This document shows positions 1 through 32,233 of a stretch of DNA of 38,097 nt, in pieces. The position numbers and the translations under genes were made by a program. The notes beneath the pieces were generated by a model. That model searched no databases. It was not told the origin of the DNA and saw only the letters and a list, made by a program, of their open reading frames with translations. Origin of the DNA: a virus (lineage: Duplodnaviria > Heunggongvirae > Uroviricota > Caudoviricetes); IMG/VR virus record IMGVR_UViG_2778261087_000005, one strand, 5' to 3'. Numbering within the stretch: position 1 is the stretch's first letter; the number at the start of each line of letters is the position of its first letter.

Positions 1-1248
1 ATGGCACTGAATATTCCATTCAGAAATGCGTACTATCGTTTTGCATCCAGTTACTCATTTCTCTTTTTTATTTCCTGGTCGCTGTGGTGGTCGTTATACG
101 CTATTTGGCTGAAAGGACATCTAGGGTTGACAGGGACGGAATTAGGTACACTTTATTCGGTCAACCAGTTTACCAGCATTCTATTTATGATGTTCTACGG
201 CATCGTTCAGGATAAACTCGGTCTGAAGAAACCGCTCATCTGGTGTATGAGTTTCATCCTGGTCTTGACCGGACCGTTTATGATTTACGTTTATGAACCG
301 TTACTGCAAAGCAATTTTTCTGTAGGTCTAATTCTGGGGGCGCTATTTTTTGGCTTGGGGTATCTGGCGGGATGCGGTTTGCTTGATAGCTTCACCGAAA
401 AAATGGCGCGAAATTTTCATTTCGAATATGGAACAGCGCGCGCCTGGGGATCTTTTGGCTATGCTATTGGCGCGTTCTTTGCCGGCATATTTTTTAGTAT
501 CAGTCCCCATATCAACTTCTGGTTGGTCTCGCTATTTGGCGCTGTATTTATGATGATCAACATGCGTTTTAAAGATAAGGATCACCAGTGCGTAGCGGCA
601 GATGCGGGAGGGGTAAAAAAAGAGGATTTTATCGCAGTTTTCAAGGATCGAAACTTCTGGGTTTTCGTCATATTTATTGTGGGGACGTGGTCTTTCTATA
701 ACATTTTTGATCAACAACTTTTTCCTGTCTTTTATGCAGGTTTATTCGAATCACACGATGTAGGAACGCGCCTGTATGGTTATCTCAACTCATTCCAGGT
801 GGTACTCGAAGCGCTGTGCATGGCGATTATTCCTTTCTTTGTGAATCGGGTAGGGCCAAAAAATGCATTACTTATCGGAGTTGTGATTATGGCGTTGCGT
901 ATCCTTTCCTGCGCGCTGTTCGTTAACCCCTGGATTATTTCATTAGTGAAGTTGTTACATGCCATTGAGGTTCCACTTTGTGTCATATCCGTCTTCAAAT
1001 ACAGCGTGGCAAACTTTGATAAGCGCCTGTCGTCGACGATCTTTCTGATTGGTTTTCAAATTGCCAGTTCGCTTGGGATTGTGCTGCTTTCAACGCCGAC
1101 TGGGATACTCTTTGACCACGCAGGCTACCAGACAGTTTTCTTCGCAATTTCGGGTATTGTCTGCCTGATGTTGCTATTTGGCATTTTCTTCTTGAGTAAA
1201 AAACGCGAGCAAATAGTTATGGAAACGCCTGTACCTTCAGCAATATAG
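1..1248 (+). CDS. cscB: Sucrose/oligosaccharide:H+ symporter, MFS LacY family (CscB-like)
   Basis: 415-aa ORF beginning at window base 1; multiple hydrophobic helices; the sequence is recalled as matching E. coli sucrose permease CscB (not verified by search). Stop TAG at 1246-1248. Confidence 0.85.
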   Translation: MALNIPFRNAYYRFASSYSFLFFISWSLWWSLYAIWLKGHLGLTGTELGTLYSVNQFTSILFMMFYGIVQDKLGLKKPLIWCMSFILVLTGPFMIYVYEPLLQSNFSVGLILGALFFGLGYLAGCGLLDSFTEKMARNFHFEYGTARAWGSFGYAIGAFFAGIFFSISPHINFWLVSLFGAVFMMINMRFKDKDHQCVAADAGGVKKEDFIAVFKDRNFWVFVIFIVGTWSFYNIFDQQLFPVFYAGLFESHDVGTRLYGYLNSFQVVLEALCMAIIPFFVNRVGPKNALLIGVVIMALRILSCALFVNPWIISLVKLLHAIEVPLCVISVFKYSVANFDKRLSSTIFLIGFQIASSLGIVLLSTPTGILFDHAGYQTVFFAISGIVCLMLLFGIFFLSKKREQIVMETPVPSAI

Positions 1249-1794
1249 ACGTAAACTTTTTCCGGTTGTTGTCGATAGCTCTATATCCCTCAACCGGAAA
1301 ATAATAATAGTAAAATGCTTAGCCCTGCTAATAATCGCCTAATCCAAACGCCTCATTCATGTTCTGGTACAGTCGCTCAAATGTACTTCAGATGCGCGGT
1401 TCGCTGATTTCCAGGACATTGTCGTCATTCAGTGACCTGTCCCGTGTATCACGGTCCTGCGAATTCATCAAGGAATGCATTGCGGAGTGAAGTATCGAGT
1501 CACGCCATATTTCGCTATCAGGATTCTGTGTGATGGTTACATCGCCCGGCTCAGGGCTGTTTAGTCATCAGCGCTTTCTGACAGTGCTGAGATTTCAACC
1601 TGTTGCAGTAAAAATGAGTAGATATAAGGCAAGTGTGCTGCCAAACCCATCTTTTACGGGGTGAAGGTAGATTTCGTTTGAAGGGTATCTGGTGTCCCCT
1701 GCAGACATCATACAGGCAATGTAACCACAGGGGATATAAAAGAATTTGTCGATGTGAGGAAATTTGTGCCCACTGTTGTGCCCGCAAAGGGAAA

Positions 1795-1998
1795 TCACGA
1801 TGCTTTTCTTTGAGGGGAGAGATGACTGAATTTCCAGTGTTGGTAGTCGGCATACATCCACCTGGATGATCGCCCGTACTTGATTGGCTTGGGAAGTTTG
1901 CCGGCCTTGATTTGGTCATAGAAGTATTTGGCCGTGTAGCCAGCATCCTCGATCATGAACTTCATGTCAATGAGTGAGTCATCGCGTAGTTCTCGCAT
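1795..1998 (-). CDS. Excisionase/AlpA-like small DNA-binding protein
   Basis: 67 aa; SD GGAGGA 6 nt upstream of the ATG at 1998; motif KAGKLPKPIKYGRSSRW resembles Xis/AlpA-type winged-helix proteins; last gene of the leftward arm. Confidence 0.5.
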   Translation of the reverse strand: MRELRDDSLIDMKFMIEDAGYTAKYFYDQIKAGKLPKPIKYGRSSRWMYADYQHWKFSHLSPQRKAS

Positions 1999-2078
1999 AG
2001 CTTATCCTCCTAAGCCAATGTCTTATACAGTTGCGGCCCATCCACAGTGGCAGGCCGTAGTTTGTTTTCTTGATGCAC

Positions 2079-2210
2079 CTAGTAGCTTCCCGAGTCCCAT
2101 TTGCACCAGTACTTCGGATGTTCGCTATCTGGTTCGATTAGGCTCTCAACGTATCCATGTATGCCGCCGGTCTTTAGCTGGACTATTGCGCCCACAGAAT
2201 ACTTAGCCAT
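2079..2210 (-). CDS. Small protein, DUF2158-like (MAKYSVGAIVQLKTGG motif)
   Basis: Internal ATG at 2210 of the 2079..2369 ORF gives a 43-aa protein with a V-x-LKSGG-like motif typical of DUF2158 small proteins; start choice is inferred. Confidence 0.4.
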   Translation of the reverse strand: MAKYSVGAIVQLKTGGIHGYVESLIEPDSEHPKYWCKWDSGSY

Positions 2211-2406
2211 TGCACACCTGCCGGTTCGCGTAGAAATGAGATGAGAGCAGCCAGCGCGGTTAGTGCTGCGATGCTCCACATGATGGGATTCGAGTGCATG
2301 GGTAACTCCCAAAAAGAAGCCGCCCGTAGGCGGCAATAACATCAAGGGATGTGAGGCGGTGCATCGCACCCAATAGCCAGCTCATAACTGGCTATCAGTT
2401 GCGCCT

Positions 2407-2706
2407 TTAGTCTTCCTGTACCAGAACAGTGTCATCTGGGACCTTAATAGTAAGGACAACGCTATACCCCTTATCGTGAGTGCTGAACGATGTTTCCCAT
2501 TGTGGGATTGGCACATCTTCATCAACCTGGCAGATACCGATAGACCAACAGCCGATGTCGGTGTATGTGGCGATTACTTGCATTTCACCTTCAGCTGATT
2601 TCAGGTGATAGATGCCCGGATGATTGAAGCAACTAATCTCCTCTCGAATCGCTCCTTCGCACTCGAACAGGTCATCACTTGCTCCATAAAAACGTAATTC
2701 CTTCAT
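2407..2706 (-). CDS. Hypothetical phage early protein
   Basis: 99-aa ORF; SD AAGGAG 5 nt upstream of ATG 2706, overlapping the stop of the upstream gene (operon arrangement). Confidence 0.6.
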   Translation of the reverse strand: MKELRFYGASDDLFECEGAIREEISCFNHPGIYHLKSAEGEMQVIATYTDIGCWSIGICQVDEDVPIPQWETSFSTHDKGYSVVLTIKVPDDTVLVQED

Positions 2707-2715
2707 AATCTCTCC

Positions 2716-3000
2716 TTAGAACGGGCAGCCGGTACGGTGTTCCCAGTCGTATTCCGCCTGGGCGTAAGCAACTGCCGAAATGAAATCGTTGTAGGCCTCG
2801 CCAGCTTTATCGCTGCGAAGTCCTTCGTATGGGCTGGAGTCAATCGGTATGGAGAAGTGGAAGAGGCCGGACGGCTCTTTTGGCATCATGTCGATGATTT
2901 TCTGTGCCCGGTCGTCGATCCACTTCTCTTTCTCGTCGTCGAGCTGCTGCTCAACCCAGCGCCGATCTTCGATTCGGTCGTAAGTGAGGTATGCGTTCAT
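2716..3000 (-). CDS. Hypothetical acidic phage early protein
   Basis: 94-aa ORF; SD AGGAG 7 nt upstream of ATG 3000. Confidence 0.6.
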   Translation of the reverse strand: MNAYLTYDRIEDRRWVEQQLDDEKEKWIDDRAQKIIDMMPKEPSGLFHFSIPIDSSPYEGLRSDKAGEAYNDFISAVAYAQAEYDWEHRTGCPF

Positions 3001-3072
3001 GGCTGAACTCCTGAAATTTGGATGTGCAGATCCCGCCCGCGTAATGCCAGGCCGATCGGTTGAATAGGGTGG

Positions 3073-3270
3073 TTACTGCTGTGCGATGGATTTCGCCGGG
3101 AACTCGCCGTTGCGGAGGATGCTTTCTACCGGCCAGCACTCAGCTGACACTTTCTGCTCTGTAGCTGCCTGGCTGCATTCCTGCTGGCTGTCGTAAACGC
3201 CGAGAATGACATCCTGATAATCACCGTTTGTCATTGCTACGGTCAGGACGAGCGCGAATAAAGTTTCCAT
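3073..3270 (-). CDS. Small hypothetical protein with hydrophobic N-terminus (METLFALVLTVAM...)
   Basis: 65-aa reading from the internal ATG at 3270; that ATG overlaps the stop of the upstream 42-codon ORF as ATGA (translational coupling). Confidence 0.45.
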   Translation of the reverse strand: METLFALVLTVAMTNGDYQDVILGVYDSQQECSQAATEQKVSAECWPVESILRNGEFPAKSIAQQ

Positions 3271-3398
3271 CAGTGAAGAGTCCTCCCGATGGCGACGGCG
3301 TAAAGACGCTTTGCTTCTTCCCACGCCGGAGCATTGCGATGGAGTACCGCGAACGACGCTAGCCGTTGGGCCTCTCTGATCTGCTGCTGGTTTACCAT
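3270..3398 (-). CDS. Small hypothetical protein (42 aa, MVNQQQIREAQRLASF...)
   Basis: Not in the supplied ORF track (below 60 aa); translated by hand; SD AGAGGA 4 nt upstream of ATG 3398; ATGA overlap with the next gene. Confidence 0.4.
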   Translation of the reverse strand: MVNQQQIREAQRLASFAVLHRNAPAWEEAKRLYAVAIGRTLH

Positions 3399-3522
3399 GA
3401 TTTCCTCTTGGCCTTATCGCGGCGAACGGAACGTTAAACAAGACTTCTGCGCTAATGGGCGGTGGATGGCCGCCGGCTGTCATAAATGGGCAGACTCGAA
3501 AATCTGCCTATGTATGGCCGAT

Positions 3523-3543
3523 AAAAAACCCGCCGGAGCGGGT
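3523..3543 (-). terminator. Intrinsic terminator on the minus strand, immediately after the N-position gene (tL1-like)
   Basis: Minus-strand hairpin ACCCGC-uccg-GCGGGU followed by UUUUU; begins 1 nt after the stop codon at 3544-3546. Confidence 0.6.
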
Positions 3544-3699
3544 CTATTTGATGCGTCTTACTAACTGCCCCTGGACATTCACCCCGTCACCCGGCTGCAG
3601 CCTCCATAACTCTGAAAGTTGCAGATCCGTCCATGCGCGAAAATCAATCAACTCACGCAAAGAAAATCCTTTCTGATGATTAACCTCAAATTCTGGCAT
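3544..3699 (-). CDS. Hypothetical small protein in the N position of the leftward early operon
   Basis: 51 aa from ATG 3699 (SD GAGGGTAAGG upstream); the track ORF extends to 3795 only via a TTG start. Followed directly by an intrinsic terminator. No Arg-rich N-like motif, so antiterminator function is not supported by sequence. Confidence 0.45.
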   Translation of the reverse strand: MPEFEVNHQKGFSLRELIDFRAWTDLQLSELWRLQPGDGVNVQGQLVRRIK

Positions 3700-3927
3700 C
3701 GCCTTACCCTCTGTCGTTACCCGCTGATGCGGGAGAAATGCTTTGTGGTGCAGCGCCGGGTGCTTATCTTCCGGTTGCCGTCGATGCAGCTGCAATTCAC
3801 TGCACTACAAAACATTCCAGTTATTGCCGGGGTATTTATCCGCGCCCGGCGCGCGCTTTCCCGCTATTCCCCAACAGCAAGAAATCGCTTACTCTTTAAT
3901 CTCCCCAACAGTAGAAAGGATATATTC

Positions 3928-4149
3928 ATGCAAACCATGCGGACCGTGTGCCCTGACTGCGGAAGTGAGATGTTCAACCAGCCCGATGATTTTGACTTTG
4001 AGACAAATTTCACCGGCGTCAGTTGTGCTGACTGTGGTCGAGAAATCACTAAGGACGATGTTGTCAATCAGGCCACGGACACGGTCAAAAAACAGATCGA
4101 CGACATGCTCAGGAATTCCCTGAAAGGAACTGGCTGGAAGTTCAAGTAA
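3928..4149 (+). CDS. Zinc-ribbon protein (CPDCG...x21...CADCG), Lar-like architecture
   Basis: 73 aa from ATG 3928 with SD AGGA 7 nt upstream; two CxxCG pairs. An antisense 115-aa ORF (3889..4236) with its own good SD overlaps it, so strand assignment is uncertain. Confidence 0.4.
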   Translation: MQTMRTVCPDCGSEMFNQPDDFDFETNFTGVSCADCGREITKDDVVNQATDTVKKQIDDMLRNSLKGTGWKFK

Positions 4150-4580
4150 CTTTAAAAGCTCCCCGGCCTGGGTAAGCACCTCGCTGGCGTCTACGTTAAG
4201 CAGTAGTGGCGCCGTTTTTTTATCTGCCATACACACCCCTCTGTTTGTTTACCGTCAGCCCCTCGCAAAGAGCTGCTGGTAAATCGCTTTGCCATAATTG
4301 CCGCTCTTCCTGAGCCCGCCTATGGTCCGACGCATGGTTTACTGTCGCGCCGTTCGACTGACCAAATCTCCACTTCGCCGCTGGCTAACTTCGCTCAGCT
4401 GTCGATGTTTCGTTTCGATGGATTGATAATGTACCAATAGTTCATTCATGTAAAGTACCATAAGTACATTTTCTGTGAATAGAAAGTTCATATGCAATTA
4501 TCTTTATGAACTTTAAGGAGAAATATTTTTGAGTTTTTTATTGATTGAGGCGAGGGGGGGGATGGGGCTGGTTTGATTTA

Positions 4581-5168
4581 TTAGAGGTTCGTCACATCAA
4601 CAAGCCTTGTGTGACCATTGAAAGTTGCGAAAAGTCCGCCGTCTGGCTCAACTACTGAAAGTTCAGCGTATCGAAGGAAGTCTGTTTTGATAACGGACAT
4701 CAACACCTCTCCGGTATCAATGTTTATGACCTCAAGCCGGTGCGCGTAAAAATCATCTTTGTTTTTGCTGCCGGCAAACGATAGGGCGATGTAGCGCCCA
4801 AATTCAGATATGGACGAACTGATGAGGTGAGTGGAAGTTTCTATCTTGAATAACTCTTTCCCGGTGTTATCCATGACTATGGCTGCAGCCATGTTGTTGT
4901 CTTTGCCGGTATGTATAGAAAATAAAAATCGCCCGTTAACAGCTATGCATTGAGGCTTAGGAGAAAGCTGCCCGCCGAGCTTAACCATAAACATGAATTT
5001 TTCATTCTTCAATACCGCCAGAGTGTCATCTCTGAGATTGCTTTCATCACGCTTGAAAGCACCTAGCTGCCAACATTTATCGTGGCTTAATTTGCAGGTG
5101 ATGAAGTGGTCGCCAAGCTCGTATAAGGCGCTTCCATCACTCAGATCTGTAACCTTAATTGCTTCCAT
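4581..5168 (-). CDS. Unknown 195-aa protein co-operonic with the CI repressor (cargo gene)
   Basis: ATG 5168 lies 11 nt downstream of the cI stop with SD GAGGAAG; no TM segment; visibly more AT-rich than flanking phage genes; no family recognised. Confidence 0.7.
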   Translation of the reverse strand: MEAIKVTDLSDGSALYELGDHFITCKLSHDKCWQLGAFKRDESNLRDDTLAVLKNEKFMFMVKLGGQLSPKPQCIAVNGRFLFSIHTGKDNNMAAAIVMDNTGKELFKIETSTHLISSSISEFGRYIALSFAGSKNKDDFYAHRLEVINIDTGEVLMSVIKTDFLRYAELSVVEPDGGLFATFNGHTRLVDVTNL

Positions 5169-5179
5169 GCTTAACTTCC

Positions 5180-5935
5180 TCAGCTATGAAATCTGTATGC
5201 CCTTGACTGGCTTACCAGCACTTTCGCGCAGATGCGGAGAGAAGAAAAATCACCATCTTCGATGTACCAGGTTTCATATTTTTTATTGTCTGAAATCACA
5301 GCTAATTTTTTGTGCTGCTTTTGAAGTCGCTTTATGTAGAGATCATTGTCCAGAACGAAAATGTATATGCCGTCACCGTCAAAGCAGTCGATGCTGACGT
5401 CGACGAAGATCTGGTCTCGCGGCTCGAACGTGCCAGACATCGAATCGCCATTCACGGCAATCATTTTTATGTGGTCAGCTGGGCGCCCACCAAATACGGC
5501 GCGAGCCTCTTCGGTTGAATACTCTATGGATCGTATTGTTTCAATGAACTCATCTCGCACAAGAATTCCTTGCCCAGCGCTAGCTTGAATATCAAAAACG
5601 TCTACACGGAAAGAATCGTCCCTCATTGCCATATGCCCTTCAGATATGCCATCTGCTGCACTATCGCCTAATAGGTAAGACGAGGATGTGCCAATTATAG
5701 CCGCCAGTTCCTGCAGCTTGCCACGTCTTGGAATAGCCTCCCCATTGAACCACTTGCTTACCGCTTTAGGCGTGAGCTTCATTCGCTTGGCTATTTCAGC
5801 CTGACGTCCATGAGCAGGTAAACCAGCTTTATCACAGGCCAGCGCTAGCCGTTGGGAAAACTCTTTACGCGCTTTTTCTTCTTGAACCATAGGTTCAATC
5901 ATAATATCACTTGCGTGAACTATCAGTTCCGACAT
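5180..5935 (-). CDS. CI-like prophage repressor (N-terminal HTH, C-terminal LexA-type S24 peptidase)
   Basis: HTH region GRQAEIAKRMKLTPKAVSKWFNG; C-terminal AVNGDSM (Ser) and IYIKRL (Lys) dyad motifs. True start may be ATG 5902 or 5890 rather than 5935 (see findings). Confidence 0.8.
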   Translation of the reverse strand: MSELIVHASDIMIEPMVQEEKARKEFSQRLALACDKAGLPAHGRQAEIAKRMKLTPKAVSKWFNGEAIPRRGKLQELAAIIGTSSSYLLGDSAADGISEGHMAMRDDSFRVDVFDIQASAGQGILVRDEFIETIRSIEYSTEEARAVFGGRPADHIKMIAVNGDSMSGTFEPRDQIFVDVSIDCFDGDGIYIFVLDNDLYIKRLQKQHKKLAVISDNKKYETWYIEDGDFSSLRICAKVLVSQSRAYRFHS

Positions 5936-5938
5936 AAT
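5882..5938. promoter_or_regulatory. Immunity-region operators and pR-like promoter
   Basis: Perfect palindrome TTGAACCATAGGTTCAA (5882-5898) and palindrome GAACTATCAGTTC (5917-5929) sharing a TGAAC half-site; the second sits in the spacer of a candidate sigma70 promoter TTGCGT(5911-5916)-16 nt-CATAAT(5933-5938) facing cro. Confidence 0.45.
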
Positions 5939-5970
5939 ATGTACCTACAGTTCAATTTGAGGGTTAACAA

Positions 5971-6198
5971 ATGCAACCTAAGAACCTTGGCGACATCATC
6001 AAGCAAATCCGTGTACCGGTGGTGGCGAAGGCTTGCGGGCGCACTCCCCGCGCTATCTACAAGTGGATTAACAGCGGTTGCCTGCCGCGTACCGATTACA
6101 CCGGCGAAACAGGTTATGCGTCCAAAATCGCAGCTGCATCTGGTGGTCAGTTTACCGAGAACCAGATCCTTGAAATCAGTAAACCAAAAGCCGCTTAA
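5971..6198 (+). CDS. Cro-like HTH regulator
   Basis: 75 aa, divergent from cI; SD GAGGG 8 nt upstream; HTH-like segment RTPRAIYKWINSG. Confidence 0.7.
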   Translation: MQPKNLGDIIKQIRVPVVAKACGRTPRAIYKWINSGCLPRTDYTGETGYASKIAAASGGQFTENQILEISKPKAA

Positions 6199-6227
6199 CG
6201 GCGGCCCTAACCACGAAAGGGAAAGAA

Positions 6228-6794
6228 ATGCATTCACTTGCGTATCAACAGAGTAGCGGACTTGAACAACGTCCGTTGATTTCGATTTATCAAAGTGTTC
6301 CGCGTAATAACCGTAAGCTAACTCGAATACGGGAGGCAGTTAAGGCCTGGCAAAAAGCTACGCCGGGCCAGTCTCAGGTTCACATTTCTCAGCTGGTTGC
6401 GAAAGAGTGGCTGGCGCGCGGCGGGAAGGGGTTGTTACTGGCAGGTTCTGAACACAACACGAAGCAGAACTTCTTCCGGATGATTAACGATCCGGGCCCG
6501 AAGAACGACAAGGGGTTGATGCTACTGATCCCCGTCATTATCGACGTGATGGCGCGGGATAACGAGAAAGTGGCGAGAGAGTTCGGTCTGGTCGCAAAGA
6601 CTGAGGCCGAACTGATAGCCGAGGCCATGAAAGAGTGCACTGAAGCGCATCAGGCGAAGTTACTTGGTCAGCCGATACAACGCCTTGAGAAAGAGGTGAG
6701 AGAAGCTGCTGAAGCACTGCTGCGCTTCCTGCCAACTGAATCAATCGCTGCGGTGGTGACAAGTCTGGCCGCTATGGCGCCGGGAGTTATGTGA
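6228..6794 (+). CDS. Regulatory protein in the cII position (possibly YdaT-like)
   Basis: 188-aa ORF immediately after cro; function assigned from position only; family not confidently recognised. Confidence 0.45.
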   Translation: MHSLAYQQSSGLEQRPLISIYQSVPRNNRKLTRIREAVKAWQKATPGQSQVHISQLVAKEWLARGGKGLLLAGSEHNTKQNFFRMINDPGPKNDKGLMLLIPVIIDVMARDNEKVAREFGLVAKTEAELIAEAMKECTEAHQAKLLGQPIQRLEKEVREAAEALLRFLPTESIAAVVTSLAAMAPGVM

Positions 6795-7030: not shown

Positions 7031-8108
7031 CCTCGCAAAAGTAATACCTTTCAGACCGTCTGTAACGGTCGTGGAGCGTCAGGTGGCAGATATCGATGAT
7101 GGGTATACCCGCATCGCTAACGAGCTGCTGGAAGCGGTTATGGCTGCTGATTTAACGGCTCGCCAGCTGAAGGTCGTTCTGGCGGTGATCCGCAAAACTT
7201 ACGGGTTCGGGAAAAAGTTTGACCGCATTACCAATACCCAGATTGCAGCAATGACCGGCATTCACCATACGCATGTCTGCAAGGCCAAGAACGAGATGAT
7301 TGCAATGAACATCATCGTTACCAACGGCCTGGCGATCGGGGTGAATAAGGTGATTTCTGACTGGAATTTCAGCATTAGCCAAAATGGCAAATCATTAGCC
7401 GAAACAGCTAATGAAACATTAGCCAAGTCAGCTAATACCCATAAGCCAACTCAGCTAAACACAAAAGAAACTATTCAAAAGAAAGAAAGAAAAGATCCCC
7501 CTAAATCCCCCCAGGGGGAAAACTCACTCGCTCAGGAAGTGATGGATTACTTCAACGAGCTAACGGGTAGTCGTTGTGCTGCGCTGGCACCTTTCGAGAA
7601 AGCTCTCTCCACGGTGAAGAGCAAAGACCAGTGCTACACCGCTGAAGAGCTGAAACTCGTTATCCGCTGGGCCCATGTGAACTGGGGTCACAGCTTCAAG
7701 CCAGAGAACCTGTGCCGTATGACCCGATTTGATGGATACCTGTCAGACGCCCTGATATGGGCTGATGGTCAGGGAAGCAACCCGGCAGCCTGTCCGCACG
7801 AAGAGATCATCAAGCTCTGGAATGAAAAATTCCCTTCGAAGGCTGTGTCGCTGCATGAGTGGAACCGCCGCCGTCCGGCCTATCGAGACCTGGAAGCTGT
7901 GTGGAACGGCAAAACCACCCAGGGCAACTGGCGAGAGCTGAAGCACATGGGAATGGCCTTCGAGCTGATTAGCAAGTCTTCCCTGTTCGGCACCAGAGGC
8001 GATCAGCCATGGCTGACTCTCGACTGGATACTGAATCCGAAGAACTGGGGATCTGTCTACGAGCAGGCTATCAACGAGCACCGTGAGCGCAAGGGAGTTA
8101 CAGCATGA
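7017..8108 (+). CDS. Replication initiation protein, lambda O-like
   Basis: N-terminal region (TRIANELLEAVMAADLTARQLKVVLAVIRKTYGFGK) resembles the phage replication protein O N-terminal domain; start is probably the GTG at 7023 (SD AGGAG at 7011-7015); stop overlaps the helicase ATG as ATGA. Confidence 0.8.
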   Translation: MVVDNLAKVIPFRPSVTVVERQVADIDDGYTRIANELLEAVMAADLTARQLKVVLAVIRKTYGFGKKFDRITNTQIAAMTGIHHTHVCKAKNEMIAMNIIVTNGLAIGVNKVISDWNFSISQNGKSLAETANETLAKSANTHKPTQLNTKETIQKKERKDPPKSPQGENSLAQEVMDYFNELTGSRCAALAPFEKALSTVKSKDQCYTAEELKLVIRWAHVNWGHSFKPENLCRMTRFDGYLSDALIWADGQGSNPAACPHEEIIKLWNEKFPSKAVSLHEWNRRRPAYRDLEAVWNGKTTQGNWRELKHMGMAFELISKSSLFGTRGDQPWLTLDWILNPKNWGSVYEQAINEHRERKGVTA

Positions 8109-9478
8109 GCCGTTTTATCGATTTGTACGTTGAGCAGGCCGTCATCGGCGGGATCATGCTCGCAGCGGGCCGCACAGACGGCGTTGACATGGCGACTGAC
8201 GCGATTGAGGGGCTGACTGAGGACCACTTCACAGCAACGCCCCATAAAGTGGCTCTGAAGTCCTATAAGCGACTCAACGAATCCGGTTCGAAGATAGACC
8301 TGCTGACGTTGACCAGCGACCTTGAACGGCTTGGCGCGCTGGAAAGTGCCGGGGGATTCGCTTACCTGGCTGAATGCAGCAAAAACACACCGTCGTTCGC
8401 GAACCTTGCCTCGTACTGCGAAAAGTTGCGGGAAATGCATCTCGGCCGCCGGATGACCCTGGCGCTACAGGTAGGGATCCAGAAGCTGTCCGAACCATCC
8501 AGTGAGGGTATCGCTGACATCATCGGCAACATACAGGCCGATATCTCTGGTATTGAGCACAGTGCGGACTATGGCACTGAGCACATCACCACCGGGATCG
8601 ACATGTCGTTAGAGACTATCCAGTCGATTATCAGCGGCGATATCTGGAAGCACAAAACCGAGCTTGGCATGGCAACCATCGACAGCGCTTTTGGCGGGTT
8701 CAACAACACCGATTTCATCGTTGTCGGCGGGCGCCCGGGCATGGGGAAAACCATGTTCAGCACCACCGTGACCGAGACTGTCGGCCTGAAAAACAAAAAG
8801 CCTGTGCTGTTCTTCAGCCTGGAAATGCCAGTTGATCAGATCTCCGAACGTGTCGCGTTCCACCGGGCACGGGTGAGTAAAGAGGATTTACTCAGCAAGC
8901 AGAGCGGCGTAATGGATGGTGCCTGGGGAAAGGTCGGCCACTGCATGAAGGATTTCATCGAAGCCCCGATCTATATCAACGACAAGCCATCCCTCAGCGT
9001 TCATCAGGTGCGAGCGGAAGCCAGGCGAATGAGCAAGAAACTGGGTGGACTTGGTGTGGTCATTGTCGATTACCTCCAGAAGATGCGCATGTCTGACCCT
9101 GAGAACATGAACCGCAGCGTAGGGGAGATCGCCACCGGCCTGAAGAACCTGGCGAAAGAATTGCGTTGCCCGGTCATCGCACTGGCTCAGCTTAACCGTA
9201 AGGTCGAAGAACGTGCTAATAAGCGCCCGGTCGCAGCTGACCTCCGCGAGTCCGGTGTTATCGAGCAGGAAGCCGATGTGATTTTCATGATCTACCGGGA
9301 TGAGAAATACAACCCGAACACCGAACTGAAAGGCATCACCGAAATCATCTGTGTGAAGTCCCGCCATGCGCCGGGGGCAGAAAAGACCTACCACTTCAGC
9401 AGCCGCTACTCAGGCCTGGACCCGGTAGATTTCACCTACAGCGGCCAGATGCAACAGGAGGCTGACTATGAGTGCTAA
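8105..9478 (+). CDS. DnaB-family replicative helicase
   Basis: 457 aa; Walker A GGRPGMGKT and DnaB C-terminal domain motifs; follows the O-like gene as in P22-type replication modules. Confidence 0.85.
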   Translation: MSRFIDLYVEQAVIGGIMLAAGRTDGVDMATDAIEGLTEDHFTATPHKVALKSYKRLNESGSKIDLLTLTSDLERLGALESAGGFAYLAECSKNTPSFANLASYCEKLREMHLGRRMTLALQVGIQKLSEPSSEGIADIIGNIQADISGIEHSADYGTEHITTGIDMSLETIQSIISGDIWKHKTELGMATIDSAFGGFNNTDFIVVGGRPGMGKTMFSTTVTETVGLKNKKPVLFFSLEMPVDQISERVAFHRARVSKEDLLSKQSGVMDGAWGKVGHCMKDFIEAPIYINDKPSLSVHQVRAEARRMSKKLGGLGVVIVDYLQKMRMSDPENMNRSVGEIATGLKNLAKELRCPVIALAQLNRKVEERANKRPVAADLRESGVIEQEADVIFMIYRDEKYNPNTELKGITEIICVKSRHAPGAEKTYHFSSRYSGLDPVDFTYSGQMQQEADYEC

Positions 9479-10067: not shown

Positions 10068-10222
10068 TGCCTTGCCCATACTGCGATGGAAAGGCTGAAT
10101 TTGATTATGACGACGATAACCTCAATTGGATATCTTGTAACGCGTGCGGAATCGCTGCACTTTATGATCATGAGAAGCCCGTGCTGACGGGCACAGAAAA
10201 CAGTACGGGTGCAATAAATTAG
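10067..10222 (+). CDS. Lar-like zinc-ribbon protein (putative restriction alleviation)
   Basis: 51 aa, MPCPYCDGKAEF...x17...CNACG; ATG overlaps the upstream stop (TGATG). Not in the ORF track (below 60 aa). Confidence 0.5.
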   Translation: MPCPYCDGKAEFDYDDDNLNWISCNACGIAALYDHEKPVLTGTENSTGAIN

Positions 10223-10656
10223 TACGAAACAATTATATCAAGCTTTTCTCCAATGATTTTCAAAGAAGAGTAGATGGATTGGCCTGAAGGAGATGGATTA
10301 CTGGAATATGAATTGTTGCCGCCTTCTAAGATGGAAGCTATTAAATTTAGTTGGTGTGACGCTTCAATCACATCGCTGTAAACTGGAGTAAGGCCTATTT
10401 TTGAGAAAAAATTATAGAATGGGATTGCTTTCGATTTTGCAATTAAAAGACCTGATGACGCCTTTAGCTCATGTATTAATTCGCTATTTGGCTTAAAATT
10501 CATTATTTTACTTTGCTCGCGAAGTAAGAGTGACGAAATTCTTCCCAGATGCTCCTTGAACGAGATATACGTTTCCAATGCGCATTTGGTTATTATTTGA
10601 CCTATGACGTAGACGGTCACACCAGTGATAATTGTAGTAAAAACAGTAAGCCACAT
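10219..10656 (-). CDS. Membrane-anchored hypothetical protein (AT-rich cargo gene, antisense to early operon)
   Basis: 145 aa; N-terminal TM helix (WLTVFTTIITGVTVYVIGQII); strongly AT-rich by eye; convergent with the Lar-like gene with overlapping stop codons. Confidence 0.65.
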   Translation of the reverse strand: MWLTVFTTIITGVTVYVIGQIITKCALETYISFKEHLGRISSLLLREQSKIMNFKPNSELIHELKASSGLLIAKSKAIPFYNFFSKIGLTPVYSDVIEASHQLNLIASILEGGNNSYSSNPSPSGQSIYSSLKIIGEKLDIIVSY

Positions 10657-28576: not shown

Positions 28577-28626
28577 TCACTACAAAGGGCGGCGTGCTGC
28601 CCTTGATACTGGTTATGGAGAACGAT

Positions 28627-29352
28627 ATGACACCTTTGAAAGAAATTGGCGAGTGCCTGATTGGTACTGGAGACAGTGAATACTTCTTCCGCCCATCATT
28701 CCGTAACATGACTCGGATCGGCGAACCAGAACATATCGTCCGCACCTTCTATGCGCTGTTCAATGAGGATGTGGCAAAGATGCTTGAAGCGGCGCGCGAA
28801 ATTCACAGTGCGATACCAGAGCATCAGCGCAGATTTTACGCCCACTATTTCGGTGACGTTTCGCTGCCACGCTGGGCACTTGATGCAGCAGGCTCTGCCG
28901 CGTTTGTGCGTGATGCATTACTCTCGGCTATTAACGTCATTCAGTCCTGCTGTGACGAGGACGTTTCTGAACTGACAGGATGGCATGAGCCATCACGCAC
29001 TGGACGGCGAACGTTTGTATGGCGCCGTGGCGCGCTGCCGCCGGAGAACCTTATTCTGATAGCTCAGTCGCTGATCATGCATGGCGTTATCGGACGGGCG
29101 AAGGTTCGTAAGTTGCAAAAGCACGAAAGCAAGGAAACGACACCGGAGTTCCATGCAACTGAATACATCATGGCGGCGCGAAACCATTTTGGGATCAGCA
29201 GGGAAGAGGCTGAAAACCTTACCATGACCGAATTCGCCATGATGCTTAACGCCAAATACCCTGACCAGAAAGGCTTCACCAGGGAAGAGTACGACGCGGT
29301 TATGGACGATGATGAACGTCGTTGGCAGGAAATGATGAAACGCGAAAATTAA
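28627..29352 (+). CDS. Tail assembly chaperone (G/GT position)
   Basis: ATG 28627 with SD GGAG; lies between the major tail and tape measure genes; no frameshift partner identified. Confidence 0.5.
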   Translation: MTPLKEIGECLIGTGDSEYFFRPSFRNMTRIGEPEHIVRTFYALFNEDVAKMLEAAREIHSAIPEHQRRFYAHYFGDVSLPRWALDAAGSAAFVRDALLSAINVIQSCCDEDVSELTGWHEPSRTGRRTFVWRRGALPPENLILIAQSLIMHGVIGRAKVRKLQKHESKETTPEFHATEYIMAARNHFGISREEAENLTMTEFAMMLNAKYPDQKGFTREEYDAVMDDDERRWQEMMKREN

Positions 29353-29457
29353 AAAAAAGCTATATAGCCATTTTTAGTAGGGGGGATTTGGAGTAGTTCT
29401 ATGATCGTTTTCATCTCTATCTGGTAGCATCCTTTCGAACTAATAGGAGATGTGAAA

Positions 29458-29817
29458 ATGAAAAAAGTCTTTATCCTTGGATTGGGTTTATTATCTTTCT
29501 ATGTCAGTGCCTCTGAATTTTCTGAGCAGGATTTAATCGAGTTAGGAAAAAAAGAAATCCGGACTGAAATCTCATTGCCAACATCTTTTTCACAGGAAAA
29601 ATTTATTCCTGATACTCGTGACAATCCATCTTCTCGAAGTGGAAATGTTTGCCTTAAAGTCTCTGGAAGAAAGAATGACGGAACTGCAATGGATCTAGCT
29701 GTCTACGGAGTGCACATAGCCACAAAAGGTGAACAAGCTACTTTTGGTGAAATTTTTAAATTTATTGGCGAATCTGAAATGCAAAGTTCAGAAGCCAAAG
29801 AATCTTGCAAATTTTAA
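29458..29817 (+). CDS. Secreted hypothetical protein (AT-rich cargo gene before the tape measure gene)
   Basis: ATG 29458 with SD AGGAGA; classic Sec signal peptide MKKVFILGLGLLSFYVSAS/E; AT-rich; own terminator. Confidence 0.65.
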   Translation: MKKVFILGLGLLSFYVSASEFSEQDLIELGKKEIRTEISLPTSFSQEKFIPDTRDNPSSRSGNVCLKVSGRKNDGTAMDLAVYGVHIATKGEQATFGEIFKFIGESEMQSSEAKESCKF

Positions 29818-29867
29818 ATTCGCCATGATGTTATAATACCTCAACATCATTGGATTTCATTAATGAA

Positions 29868-29888
29868 CCCGCTACGGCGGGTTTTTTT
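29868..29888 (+). terminator. Intrinsic terminator
   Basis: CCCGC-uacg-GCGGG followed by UUUUUUU. Confidence 0.7.
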
Positions 29889-29905
29889 ATGCCCGGAGAA
29901 AAGTG

Positions 29906-32233
29906 ATGTCTGAAAAAGCAGGCGAGATTTATTACGACATCGAGGCCGATGTTTCTGGCTTGCTCAAGGCGCAGGGAAAGGCTAATAAGTCGCTCGACTC
30001 CATCGGCAACTCGGCGACCAATGCAGCCAAAAAGATGGGTGAGTTGCAGACGAATATCAACCGCGTCGCAGGGGCTATTGCCGCATCACTTGTTGTTGAC
30101 TGGGGTAAGGCGTTTCTCGTTGCTGCTGACAACATGAGCCAGCTCAACGCGCGTATAGAGAGGCTTACTGGTAGCGCAGCGACAGCCTCTCAGACAATGC
30201 AGAGCCTGATGCGTATCAGTTCGGCAACTGGCGGTTCTCTTCAGGACACTGCGAAGCTGTGGGAAACTCTCAGCACGGCGTTGCGCGATACCGGCGCGAC
30301 GAACGGCCAGATCATTCAGCTCACCGAAACACTTCAGAAAATCGGGCGTATTGGTGGATCCTCATCCGAGGAAATGGCGAATGCGCTCCGTCAGTTCGGC
30401 CAGTCCATATCCTCGGGCACTATCCGTGCTGAGGAGTTCAACTCCATCCTTGAGCAAATGCCAGAACTGGCGCGGCAGATCGCCGCCGGGATGGGTGTAA
30501 GCATTGGAGAACTTCGCCAGCTGATGCTGGACGGGAAACTGACGGCAGAAGAAGCCCTCAACGCTATTCAGAAGCAAACCGGATCAGTCAACGCTGAGTT
30601 CGAGAAACTCCCGCGTACGCTTTCACAGGCTAATACCGCGCTGACAAACTCATTCCTGTCGATGATCGATTCAGTTAACCAGGCAACAGGTGCGAGTAAC
30701 GGCCTGGTGGCAGTTATCGATTCAATGACAGCTGCGCTCGACAGACTGGTTGGTAAGGCAATCTCAGCGGATGCGCAGATTTCAGATCTGAACAGCACGG
30801 CAGAAATGTTTACCCGCCGGGCCCGGACCTGGTCATGGCTGGGGCTTGATGGTTGGGAGGCACAAAACAAAGCGCTGGCTGGGCTGAGCAATAAAGCCGC
30901 GATTCTGGTTGGCGACCTGGCGGCTGTAACCAAAGAATCACAGGCCGCCGCCAACACCAAGCCGATCGAGATAAAAACCACGGCAACGACCACCGGGAGC
31001 AAGTCGAAAGGTGGAGCGTCAGCCGCTAAGAAAGAAGCGGATCAATACGCTAAAGCGCAGGAAACCGTTAACCAAAAACTGGATGAGTTGCGGCAGAAGG
31101 CCGAGCTGTCAGCGGGGAGTGTTGGCGAGTTATCGCGAGCGCAGGCCGTGCTTAATGCACAGCAGTCTCTCGGTAATACCGCCACGCAGGAGCAAATCAT
31201 GCTGGCCGGTCAACTGGCAGGTAAAGCCTGGGACAATGCCAACGCATTGCGTGAGCAGGCCAAGGCTGAACGGGAGCGCACAGAGACTGCCAATAAGTTC
31301 AGCACAATCCAGGGGAAAACCAGCAAAACAGCCGGCCTGGATAGCCAGTACCAGAAAGACATTGCTGACATCCAGCTTTACGCCCAACTTTACCCGCAGA
31401 AGATCGGGGAGGCTGAGGCAGCGCGTGCCGCTATCGAGCAGCAGTATCGTGATCAGCGTAACGCTGCAATGTGGGAAGAATGGGCGCAACAGAACGCGGC
31501 CACTCAGGCAGCGGCAGCGGCTTTCGACTCTCTTGGTTCGGTGGCCAGCAATGCGCTGACTGGCATTGTCACCGGAAGTATGTCGGCCAGCGATGCGATG
31601 CGCAGTATCGGTATGACCGTGCTGAACAGCGTTGTTAACTCGTTCGTTCAGATGGGCATTGAGTGGGTTAAGTCGGCCATTATGGGCCAGACGGCCACTA
31701 CCGCGGCGGTTGCAGCATCCACCACGGCGCAGGCAGCAGGCATCGCAACCACGACAGCTACTTCGACGGCAGCGGCAGCGGCTACTACGGCGGCATGGAC
31801 TCCTGCGGCCATCATGTCCTCCGTGGCTTCATTCGGTGGCGCTGTTGCTATTGGTCTTGGCGCGATGGCTGGCATCCTGGCATTGTCTGGCAAGCGCAAG
31901 AATGGCGGCCCGGTGAGTGCAGGCGGAATGTATCAGGTCGGCGAAGGGGGCATGCCTGAGATTTACCAGGCCAGCACCGGTAAGCAGTACATGATTCCTG
32001 GTGATAACGGTCGGTTGATCAGCAATAAGGACATTACTGCCGGGGGAGGTGGAGGGGTGGTAATCAACATCCAGAACTACACGTCATCCTCTGTCGATGC
32101 GCAGGCCGGTACGGATGCTAATGGTGGCGTGACTGTGGATGTGATCGTCGCTGACCTGAATAACGGTGGGCCCATCAGTAACGCCATTACCAGCAACATG
32201 AACGTTAAACGAACGCCGAGGGGGCAGGGCTGA
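29906..32233 (+). CDS. Tail tape measure protein
   Basis: About 775 aa; long helical Ala/Gln-rich protein with a Gly-rich C-terminal region; SD GGAG 7 nt upstream of ATG 29906. Confidence 0.85.
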   Translation: MSEKAGEIYYDIEADVSGLLKAQGKANKSLDSIGNSATNAAKKMGELQTNINRVAGAIAASLVVDWGKAFLVAADNMSQLNARIERLTGSAATASQTMQSLMRISSATGGSLQDTAKLWETLSTALRDTGATNGQIIQLTETLQKIGRIGGSSSEEMANALRQFGQSISSGTIRAEEFNSILEQMPELARQIAAGMGVSIGELRQLMLDGKLTAEEALNAIQKQTGSVNAEFEKLPRTLSQANTALTNSFLSMIDSVNQATGASNGLVAVIDSMTAALDRLVGKAISADAQISDLNSTAEMFTRRARTWSWLGLDGWEAQNKALAGLSNKAAILVGDLAAVTKESQAAANTKPIEIKTTATTTGSKSKGGASAAKKEADQYAKAQETVNQKLDELRQKAELSAGSVGELSRAQAVLNAQQSLGNTATQEQIMLAGQLAGKAWDNANALREQAKAERERTETANKFSTIQGKTSKTAGLDSQYQKDIADIQLYAQLYPQKIGEAEAARAAIEQQYRDQRNAAMWEEWAQQNAATQAAAAAFDSLGSVASNALTGIVTGSMSASDAMRSIGMTVLNSVVNSFVQMGIEWVKSAIMGQTATTAAVAASTTAQAAGIATTTATSTAAAAATTAAWTPAAIMSSVASFGGAVAIGLGAMAGILALSGKRKNGGPVSAGGMYQVGEGGMPEIYQASTGKQYMIPGDNGRLISNKDITAGGGGGVVINIQNYTSSSVDAQAGTDANGGVTVDVIVADLNNGGPISNAITSNMNVKRTPRGQG

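Follow-up and report, generated by a model that had tools for sequence, protein, structure and literature searches.

The interval between cI and N in lambdoid phages is a known hotspot, and rexAB and bstA, which both lie there, share the promoter of the repressor (PMC8585504). In lambda the slot just past cI and before oL/pL is occupied by two co-transcribed genes, which encode the cytoplasmic sensor RexA and RexB, a membrane protein described as an ion channel (PMC8585504). In the Salmonella prophage BTP1 a single gene, presumably on the cI promoter, lies past cI and encodes BstA, which is present in prophages across several Gram-negative genera (PMC8585504). The prototype moron, HK97 gene 15, occupies the interval between the DUF6246 gene and the tape-measure gene (TMP); it acts in superinfection exclusion and encodes gp15, a small protein that resides in the inner membrane (PMC3594210). 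Following the definition of Juhala et al. 2000, as summarised in PMC3594210, morons are extra DNA between features that are adjacent in relatives, with a promoter and a terminator of their own and a base composition unlike that of the neighbouring genes. Prophages also encode defences that act as binders and have no effector domain, such as Tab of P. aeruginosa JBD26 (PMC10884400) and Tai of phi80 and PICIs (PMC11364771). Both block tail assembly; Tai stops a tail-assembly step, and in the case of phi80 its target is the central tail fibre (PMC10884400, PMC11364771).

Here, we describe a gene for a 195-aa protein that occupies the same slot as rexA/rexB in the window, i.e. the whole stretch of 38,097 nucleotides that was analysed. 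The features of its immunity region are listed below; operators and promoters are consensus-level predictions.

4454 to 4426, minus strand: pL-like promoter, TTTACA-17-CATTAT
4430-4444, 4454-4468 and 4476-4490, minus strand: operator-like sites of oL (oL/pL block 4426 to 4490)
4490 to 4580, minus strand: 3' untranslated stretch, rich in C, poor in G and without structure (MFE 0 kcal/mol)
4538 to 5176, minus strand: discrete insertion (about 0.64 kb), missing from the related immunity regions of E. coli ET846, Citrobacter phage Omnitron and Klebsiella phage Kp4856-1
4581 to 5168, minus strand: ORF of the 195-aa protein, stop codon included
5169 to 5182, minus strand: junction, with the cI stop TGA at 5182-5180, a Shine-Dalgarno core GAGGA at 5181-5177 and an 8-nt spacer, followed by the ATG at 5168
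5180 to 5935, minus strand: cI-type repressor (HTH_3 and Peptidase_S24; phrog_4 match at 9e-51)
5883 to 5954, no strand assigned: oR, three operator-like sites TG(A/T)AC-N5-GT(T/A)CA at 5883-5897, 5916-5930 and 5940-5954
5926 to 5898, minus strand: pRM-like promoter, whose -10 hexamer ends 7 nt ahead of the ATG at 5890

The position equivalent to that of rexAB, which the first-pass annotation had proposed, is borne out: the gene belongs to the immunity region, where cI flanks it on one side and a conserved oL/pL block on the other, and its ORF is the sole one between cI and oL. The minus-strand junction reads CATAGC-TGA-GGAAGTTAAGC-ATG, confirming the proposal that the ORF starts 11 nt past the cI stop codon (the spacing is exactly 11 nt) with its own Shine-Dalgarno sequence, a GAGGA core 8 nt ahead of the ATG. 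The 17 nt of this junction are identical across all five aligned loci (the window, L003 and L013-L015). The ORF itself is real, but the coordinates originally assigned to the gene, 4581-5182, extend too far, as the ORF covers 4581-5168 and what lies beyond is the stop codon of cI with the spacer of 11 nt. The ATG at 5902 or that at 5890, rather than position 5935, is the probable functional start of cI; because 7 nt separate the end of the pRM-like -10 hexamer from the ATG at 5890, a leaderless cI mRNA is predicted.

Comparison with related immunity regions allowed us to define the insertion to within a few bases. In ET846, Omnitron and Kp4856-1 the homology breaks at the cI stop codon and restarts about 45 nt past the ORF, with breakpoints at 5176/5172 and 4537/4529 and a gap between them of 47-71 nt in these relatives versus 639 nt in the window. 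The inserted DNA contains the 195-aa ORF alone, flanked by some 8 nt on its upstream and some 43 nt on its downstream side. A promoter would not fit in, and the gene should therefore rely on the cI transcript for its expression. Such a dependence had been suggested before, and it is supported by the finding that only 11 nt lie upstream of the gene and that no promoter-like site was found within cI; nor did we find a terminator between cI and the ORF or an Rfam match in positions 3800-6300. The oL/pL block is conserved in four aligned class A loci (the window, L003, L013 and L015) and in relatives without the 195-aa gene, and the stretch downstream of the gene is conserved in the same four loci, whereas genes farther out vary by locus. 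No intrinsic terminator was found between the ORF and pL, in 4490-4580, so any termination ahead of pL would need Rho.

The gene is thus extra DNA between features that are adjacent in relatives, as the moron definition has it, but the window copy, with 11 nt upstream and no intrinsic terminator, carries neither a promoter nor a terminator of its own. The AT-richness reported in the first-pass annotation is real (the ORF has a GC content of 44.7% versus 52.2% for the window, the 11th percentile among 588-nt windows), yet it is modest and common to cI itself (46.7%). We therefore rejected a strong compositional foreignness of the ORF, whose GC content is only about 7.5 points under the window mean and near that of cI. 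An additional copy of the gene elsewhere in the window was also rejected.

To describe the family we separated close copies with at least 86% identity (class A) from distant copies with 30-52% identity. None of the 40 class A copies is disrupted: each is exactly 195 aa long, there are 31 distinct protein variants among the 40 loci, and a protein identical to the window copy is present on 388 contigs. The dN/dS values of 0.06-0.11, at dS of up to 0.79, reveal purifying selection on the ORF. A chance ORF or a decaying pseudogene, which the missing match in curated family libraries might have suggested, is refuted by these values, by the intact copies of equal length, by the 30-52% homologues in a Klebsiella phage, Serratia, Providencia and Vibrio, and by a confident AF2 model. 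Distant homologues also occur in other E. coli prophages. Every family member is named ‘hypothetical protein’ in the databases, and our literature search, by RefSeq accession and for propeller-type prophage defences, returned nothing on the family.

Close and distant copies differ in where they lie. The gene is found behind the same cI in all 41 loci with a copy of at least 86% identity, and between a DUF6246 (tail chaperone-like) gene and the tape-measure gene in all 16 loci with a 30-52% copy. The corresponding slot of the window phage, 28594 to 32233, contains the following features.

28594 to 29352, plus strand: DUF6246 gene
29452 to 29817, plus strand: 121-aa signal-peptide moron, 36% GC
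29865 to 29884, plus strand: intrinsic terminator
29903 to 32233, plus strand: tape-measure gene

The tail module of the window phage is homologous to that of the tail-slot relatives (48-57% identity for DUF6246 and 40-48% for TMP), and its DUF6246-TMP slot holds no homologue of the 195-aa gene. A role as a tail structural or assembly gene was rejected, since the window phage keeps the homologous module without the gene there. The two placements, together with a window tail module that does without the gene, indicate that it is mobile accessory cargo rather than a structural or regulatory core gene, and the family has moved between the two slots. The accessory status is reinforced by the fact that the distant homologues, unlike the window copy, take the slot that corresponds to that of HK97 gene 15 (PMC3594210). 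In all four phages examined the slot closes with a strong intrinsic terminator just before the tape-measure gene, and a single weak candidate promoter was spotted by eye in the tail-slot relatives. Where examined, the next gene after the tail-slot homologue always codes for a small protein of the exported, lipoprotein or TM type, which is typical of exclusion functions. An obligatory two-gene system with such an exported neighbour was rejected, as these neighbours show no relation to each other and none accompanies the gene in the window.

The 195-aa protein (21.7 kDa, pI 5.7) is soluble and acidic. The absence of a TM segment noted earlier was confirmed (the maximum Kyte-Doolittle 19-residue mean is 1.06), and no signal peptide was found. 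The copy of V. casei carries a TM-like N-terminal extension that depends on an upstream GTG start call, and a membrane-anchored form as the norm of the family was rejected, given this dependence and a V. fluvialis copy of 195 aa without the extension. That the protein belongs to no recognisable family holds for sequence libraries: Pfam, PHROGs, PADLOC and NCBIfam gave no match, and PDB searches with the single protein and with a family profile returned only noise (MotA and CsgG, E about 0.4-0.6). It does not hold for the predicted fold, which is clearly a beta-propeller. The AF2 model (pLDDT 90.9, pTM 0.87) has 18 strands in four-stranded antiparallel radial blades, all of its top structural matches are propellers, and we assign the fold with high confidence, on the strength of this model, to a beta-propeller arc of about four blades. 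Weak multi-stretch phmmer matches fall on WD40-like repeats. Propellers of the WD40, PQQ or YVTN type, in contrast, usually have six to eight blades, and the 195-aa protein has neither a Pfam propeller repeat above threshold (sub-threshold propeller matches occur in one of 17 family members) nor an internal blade repeat detectable by hhalign. The structural matches include designed or natural half-propellers that form rings (6g6q and 6r60), which suggests that the modelled protein may oligomerise. A beta-propeller is a generic scaffold, and the fold does not indicate the target. No enzymatic, nucleic-acid-binding or membrane domain was found in the protein, nor did we find homology to a housekeeping or structural protein, which would have spoken against the candidate as first put forward.

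How does the gene compare with the systems described at these positions? It resembles rexA/rexB in its location in the immunity region and presumably in being expressed from the repressor promoter in lysogens (PMC8585504), co-expression being suggested by the 11-nt gap to cI and by the missing space for a promoter. In contrast to the two rex genes, this is one gene and there is no membrane protein; RexAB has no sequence similarity to the 195-aa protein, and the propeller fold gives no hint of a sensor and ion-channel mechanism. BstA carries an N-terminal KilA-N domain. The 195-aa gene is likewise a single gene past cI, but its product has no sequence similarity to BstA and, according to Pfam, no KilA-N domain, and so does not belong to the BstA family; BstA is an abortive-infection protein, whereas the 195-aa protein has no obvious effector. 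Superinfection exclusion of the HK97 gp15 type keeps the DNA of incoming phages from entering the cell. Unlike gp15, a small protein of the inner membrane, the 195-aa protein is soluble and all-beta, with no TM segment and no sequence similarity to gp15. Tab and Tai are small moron proteins expressed from prophages, and we hypothesise that the 195-aa protein might share their blocking mode, although no sequence similarity to them was noticed, it is longer than Tab (83 aa), the Tab and Tai loci (between terminase genes; upstream of the packaging module) differ from the cI slot and, beside the 195-aa gene, we identified no adjacent counter-defence gene.

Taken together, we tentatively favour, with slightly less than even confidence, the view that the gene is promoter-less moron cargo between the cI stop codon and oL/pL, encoding a propeller binder that is co-expressed with cI and protects the lysogen from phages. 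Accessory cargo placed there would be translated from its own Shine-Dalgarno sequence on a cI mRNA that would start at the maintenance promoter in a lysogen and, early after infection, probably at the establishment promoter. If the gene rides on this mRNA, the protein should be made whenever the repressor is. It would most likely be a stoichiometric protein-binding module, which may self-associate into a full ring, and would shield the lysogen by attaching to a protein of a phage or of the host and blocking it. The blocked step would be DNA entry or virion (tail) assembly, in the manner of HK97 gp15, Tab and Tai and in contrast to RexAB or BstA, which kill the cell. Here we infer that the gene is transcribed together with cI, that its product acts by binding and that the lysogen gains a defence. 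Of the earlier proposal, the position and the expression logic are upheld, on stronger grounds than the sequence alone could offer, whereas a defence activity is so far unsupported: the protein lacks an effector domain and matches no PADLOC model. PADLOC-DB v2.0.0 (defence libraries up to 2023 were covered) yielded no match at E<=1 for the window protein and none for its homologues from the Klebsiella phage and Vibrio; with the Providencia homologue there was a single spurious match (0.0018).

A bolder version of this protective reading is possible, if doubtful, namely that the protein founds a new effector-less single-gene anti-phage family, in which a half-propeller ring sequesters a protein of a superinfecting siphophage or a host entry protein and imposes a block without killing. 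As part of it we would equally tentatively regard the cI-N and chaperone-TMP intervals as the two classical lambdoid moron slots between which one and the same gene family moved. Examples of proteins that such a ring could sequester are the tape-measure or tail-tip complex and a host entry factor. DNA entry or tail assembly would be blocked, by a protein made constitutively with the repressor.

Several alternatives have to be weighed against the protective reading. The protein could be a lysogenic-conversion factor, a propeller that binds a host protein and alters physiology (stress tolerance, metabolism, colonisation) to the benefit of the lysogen. The expression logic and the cargo status would be the same, no defence-associated domain is present, UmuDC and Arc-like genes occupy the DUF6246-TMP slot in Providencia-type relatives, and the known morons of cI-linked and tail slots include non-defence cargo such as lom, bor and sopE (PMC3594210). 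We nevertheless consider it rather unlikely, as the gene family was met solely in prophage or phage contexts, with no chromosomal locus, the tail-slot neighbours examined are of the exclusion type described above, and the characterised cI-linked cargo is mainly anti-phage (PMC8585504).

A stand-alone abortive-infection effector, sensing infection and then killing or arresting the cell as RexAB or BstA do, would suit a gene in the rexAB/bstA slot (PMC8585504), but the known beta-propeller defence protein, the sole propeller in validated E. coli defence found by our literature search, has its propeller fused to an Mrr-family nuclease domain (PMC9519451). Here the model is a plain propeller arc, and the protein lacks a membrane segment as well as any domain of the nuclease, NADase, kinase, pore or KilA-N type. 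Abortive infection is quite improbable; both a binding or blocking mechanism and a non-defence lysogenic conversion are likelier. Anti-defence proteins are typically small soluble binders without enzymatic domains. A counter-defence protein that neutralises host immunity, made early from the establishment promoter or, in relatives, late from the tail operon, would fit this type, and read-through could express the tail-slot gene, which lies in the late operon, in lytic growth. The window gene, however, goes with the maintenance transcript, whose timing does not suit a protein of the infection stage, and the tail-slot cassette has its own terminator, like lysogen-expressed morons, so this alternative is improbable to much the same degree. 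A function for the phage itself, as a modulator of the lysis-lysogeny switch (e.g. of cI cleavage) or as an accessory factor of tail assembly, is suggested by the location of the gene, which adjoins cI in 41 loci and the tape-measure region in 16. It is also quite improbable, since related immunity regions work with the slot empty, the window tail module lacks the gene, the window gene lies outside any late operon, and both positions are hard to account for by one function. 

The post-repressor interval is among the most reliably expressed sites of a prophage, and RexAB and BstA already came from there. In the present case the borders of the insertion are known to a few bases, and the gene must, as far as the layout indicates, borrow the repressor transcript. 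Furthermore, the placement of the family in both textbook moron slots is good comparative evidence of selection for a role in the lysogen. We believe that this uncharacterised beta-propeller-like product is a credible candidate for a new lysogen-protecting protein. If it is not protective, it would be another hypothetical moron whose fold is known; if it is, a propeller-only binder would join the small group of defences that block, rather than kill or cut.

Comparison with related immunity regions that lack it shows that a gene for a 195-aa protein has been inserted behind the cI repressor. In E. coli ET846 and Citrobacter phage Omnitron, homology to the window continues through the 3' end of cI as far as 5177 and 5173, respectively, and in these two and Klebsiella phage Kp4856-1, which carries a related 240-aa cI without the gene directly downstream, it restarts at 4537 or 4529, within the oL/pL block. 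The breakpoints lie 71 nt apart in ET846, 47 nt in Omnitron and 639 nt in the window, the inserted segment (~4538-5176) consisting of the ORF with ~8 nt upstream and ~43 nt downstream. The region contains the following features, of which the operator- and promoter-like sites are consensus-level predictions:

4581-5168, minus strand, the 195-aa ORF (ORF call)
5180-5935, minus strand, cI/LexA-type repressor adjoining the ORF upstream (HTH_3, 9.7e-8; Peptidase_S24, 2.4e-18; phrog_4 'transcriptional repressor', 9e-51)
5883-5897, 5916-5930 and 5940-5954, right operator-like sites, between cI and cro
4430-4444, 4454-4468 and 4476-4490, left operator-like sites, left of the ORF
4454..4426, pL-like promoter (TTTACA-17-CATTAT), among the left operator-like sites
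5926..5898, pRM-like promoter, among the right operator-like sites

The operator-like motif, TG(A/T)AC-N5-GT(T/A)CA, occurs three times on each side. As operator- and promoter-like sites flank it on both sides, the ORF is placed within the immunity region, with cI on one side and oL/pL on the other, that is, in the lambda rexAB slot to which the first-pass annotation had assigned it. The junction with cI reads CATAGC-TGA-GGAAGTTAAGC-ATG on the minus strand, and thus confirms a start 11 nt after the cI stop with its own Shine-Dalgarno sequence (GAGGA core, 8 nt before the ATG). The originally proposed interval of 4581-5182 did contain the ORF, but its remainder is spacer and the cI stop codon. 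Likewise, the suggested AT-richness is real (44.7% GC against 52.2% for the window; 11th percentile among equal-size windows) but modest, cI being similar at 46.7%. In the pRM-like promoter the -10 hexamer, TATGAT, ends at 5898, 7 nt before ATG 5890; the cI mRNA is accordingly predicted to be leaderless, as it is in lambda, and the palindrome TGAACCATAGGTTCA (5883-5897) overlaps this predicted start in the manner of lambda OR3. The listed cI ORF (start 5935, 251 aa) probably extends too far upstream; the related Kp4856-1 repressor starts at the equivalent of ATG 5902.

The inserted segment has no room for a promoter, and our scan found neither a promoter-like site inside cI nor a terminator between cI and the ORF. 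Together, this strongly implies that the gene would be expressed from the cI transcript. The 3' untranslated stretch is C-rich and wholly unstructured (MFE 0 kcal/mol) and contains no intrinsic terminator; termination before pL would presumably be Rho-dependent.

The gene is linked to the immunity cassette. All 41 loci with copies of at least 86% identity, from E. coli, Enterobacter, Citrobacter and 34 IMG/VR contigs, carry it 11 nt after the same cI, itself 96-100% identical. Downstream, oL/pL and the leader are conserved (220-nt alignment of four of these loci), and beyond this flank the outer genes vary. The leader below the pL-like promoter (4360-4420, minus strand), conserved in all four cassettes aligned, contains by eye a hairpin resembling boxB (GCTGAGC-GAAGTTA-GCCAGC), which might represent nutL; an N-like protein was not identified. 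In one Citrobacter genome (locus L014) an IS110-family transposase (7631-8707) has inserted left of the gene, between it and Ral, which is called next in the leftward operon, leaving the cassette intact.

Comparing copies from E. coli, Citrobacter and Enterobacter prophages, we obtained a dN/dS of 0.06-0.11 with dS up to 0.79, revealing purifying selection. The 17-nt junction TGAGGAAGTTAAGCATG is invariant in all five loci aligned, while neighbouring synonymous sites differ by 13-49%. Forty of the loci behind cI yield 31 distinct protein variants, with variation concentrated in residues 1-70 and a length of exactly 195 aa throughout; this uniformity and the dN/dS exclude a chance ORF. A protein identical to that of the window is on record for 388 contigs, and every source names it 'hypothetical protein'.

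All 16 distant copies (30-52% identity) occupy a second slot, between the DUF6246 chaperone-like gene and the tape-measure gene, a position equivalent to that of HK97 gene 15, from which they differ in sequence and fold. They come from Kp4856-1, another E. coli lineage, a Providencia lineage, Vibrio casei, a lineage with a Serratia-named protein cluster and several metagenome or IMG/VR contigs. In all five lineages examined, the product of the next gene is a small protein of exported, lipoprotein or TM type; apart from two copies of the dn110/dn123 type, these products are unrelated between lineages. A strong intrinsic terminator directly precedes the tape-measure gene in four of four phages (the window, L010, L002 and the Vibrio locus). 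In relatives the slot is a multi-gene cargo island:

L002, 3568-5923
L007, 2397-6991
L012, 1095-5796
L058, 4313-6066
L059, 4068-6066

Besides membrane proteins, including one of 190 aa that is multi-TM, and several unrelated lipoproteins or secreted proteins, the cargo includes KilA-N, XhlA-like, Arc repressor and UmuD/UmuC genes and a 192-aa protein with, by eye, an HExxH motif (HEAGH). The window has a homologous tail module (DUF6246 48-57%, tape-measure protein 40-48% identical) and a single copy of the 195-aa family, the one behind cI; in its tail slot there is only a gene of 36% GC for a 121-aa protein with a signal peptide. The gene is thus no tail component but cargo that became fixed in two separate hotspots. 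Of these, the tail slot is probably the older location, as its clade is much the more diverse. The 121-aa protein (29452-29817, plus strand), between DUF6246 (28594-29352) and the tape-measure gene (29903-32233) and followed by an intrinsic terminator (29865-29884), has no family match; it looks like a classical envelope-targeted moron and is a candidate for superinfection exclusion.

A 145-aa ORF opposed to the early-right operon (10219-10656, minus strand; 36.5% GC), located in the strongest AT-rich dip within the first 12 kb, matches nothing in Pfam, NCBIfam or PADLOC and is likely another moron. An ECs_2282-family zinc-ribbon gene (3676-4149, plus strand; NCBIfam 5e-23), weakly matching PADLOC candidate PDC-M14A (6e-6, 73-aa core), is convergent with the pL operon and could for this reason be expressed in the lysogen; the 115-aa ORF overlapping it (3889-4236, minus strand) is probably not real. 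At the left end, 1-1248 encodes a host oligosaccharide MFS transporter (LacY_symp 1e-193), and genomes matching only the leftmost part lose homology near 1713. E. coli GB089 is 99.9% identical over 4400-6300 and has ~4.7 kb, encoding TraR, DUF551, a methyltransferase, an exonuclease and RecT, that the window lacks immediately to the left of gamL (2716). The stretch 1-4400 is contiguous in no complete E. coli genome.

The protein had been described as belonging to no recognisable family. Pfam, PHROG, PADLOC and NCBIfam models indeed gave zero matches and PDB sequence searches only noise, but its predicted fold is a familiar one. AlphaFold2, given a 17-sequence alignment, returned an all-beta model (pLDDT 90.9, pTM 0.87) with 18 strands, forming four four-stranded blades and an N-terminal hairpin. 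Its top structural matches are all beta-propellers, Foldseek searches of PDB and BFVD agreeing, and 140-170 residues align to arcs of rings with six to eight blades; among the matches are half-propeller fragments from which rings assemble (6g6q, 6r60). The blades have diverged so far that hhalign detects no repeat among them. The family is tiny: a set of 1.84 billion proteins yields 11 representatives at 50% identity, the three weakest being generic WD40-type repeat proteins with matches in several stretches, and a profile search of 5.8 billion sequences added only Providencia-type, Serratia-type and Vibrio members. The protein (21.7 kDa, pI 5.7) is soluble, without the TM segment whose absence had been noted before (highest 19-residue Kyte-Doolittle mean 1.06), and no enzymatic, DNA-binding or membrane domain was found. 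From the model, we read it as a protein-binding module that possibly oligomerises.

The cI-N interval is a recognised hotspot holding rexAB and bstA, both sharing the repressor promoter (PMC8585504); the 195-aa gene is equivalent to them in position and different in sequence and fold. That it is lysogen-expressed accessory cargo is highly probable. The protein would be translated from cI mRNA in lysogens and act by binding, to the benefit of the lysogen, and whether that benefit is anti-phage is close to an even call. Since there is no effector domain, we think it more likely that the protein stoichiometrically blocks a phage or host protein than that it causes abortive infection, and an abortive-infection effector seems very improbable. 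Such a block may consist of exclusion at DNA entry or of tail-assembly interference, as in Tab (PMC10884400) and Tai (PMC11364771); this specific form is put forward tentatively. The main rival, a lysogenic-conversion role unrelated to phages, is rather unlikely. An anti-defence protein, or a regulatory or tail role for the phage itself, is hardly to be expected.

The 195-aa gene has the core property of a moron, in that it is inserted between features that adjoin one another in relatives; the window copy has neither a promoter nor a terminator of its own. Many comparable hypothetical morons exist, and the comparative case for this one is clean. We rate it as repressor-linked, probably lysogen-expressed prophage cargo, representing an uncharacterised family with a common fold.
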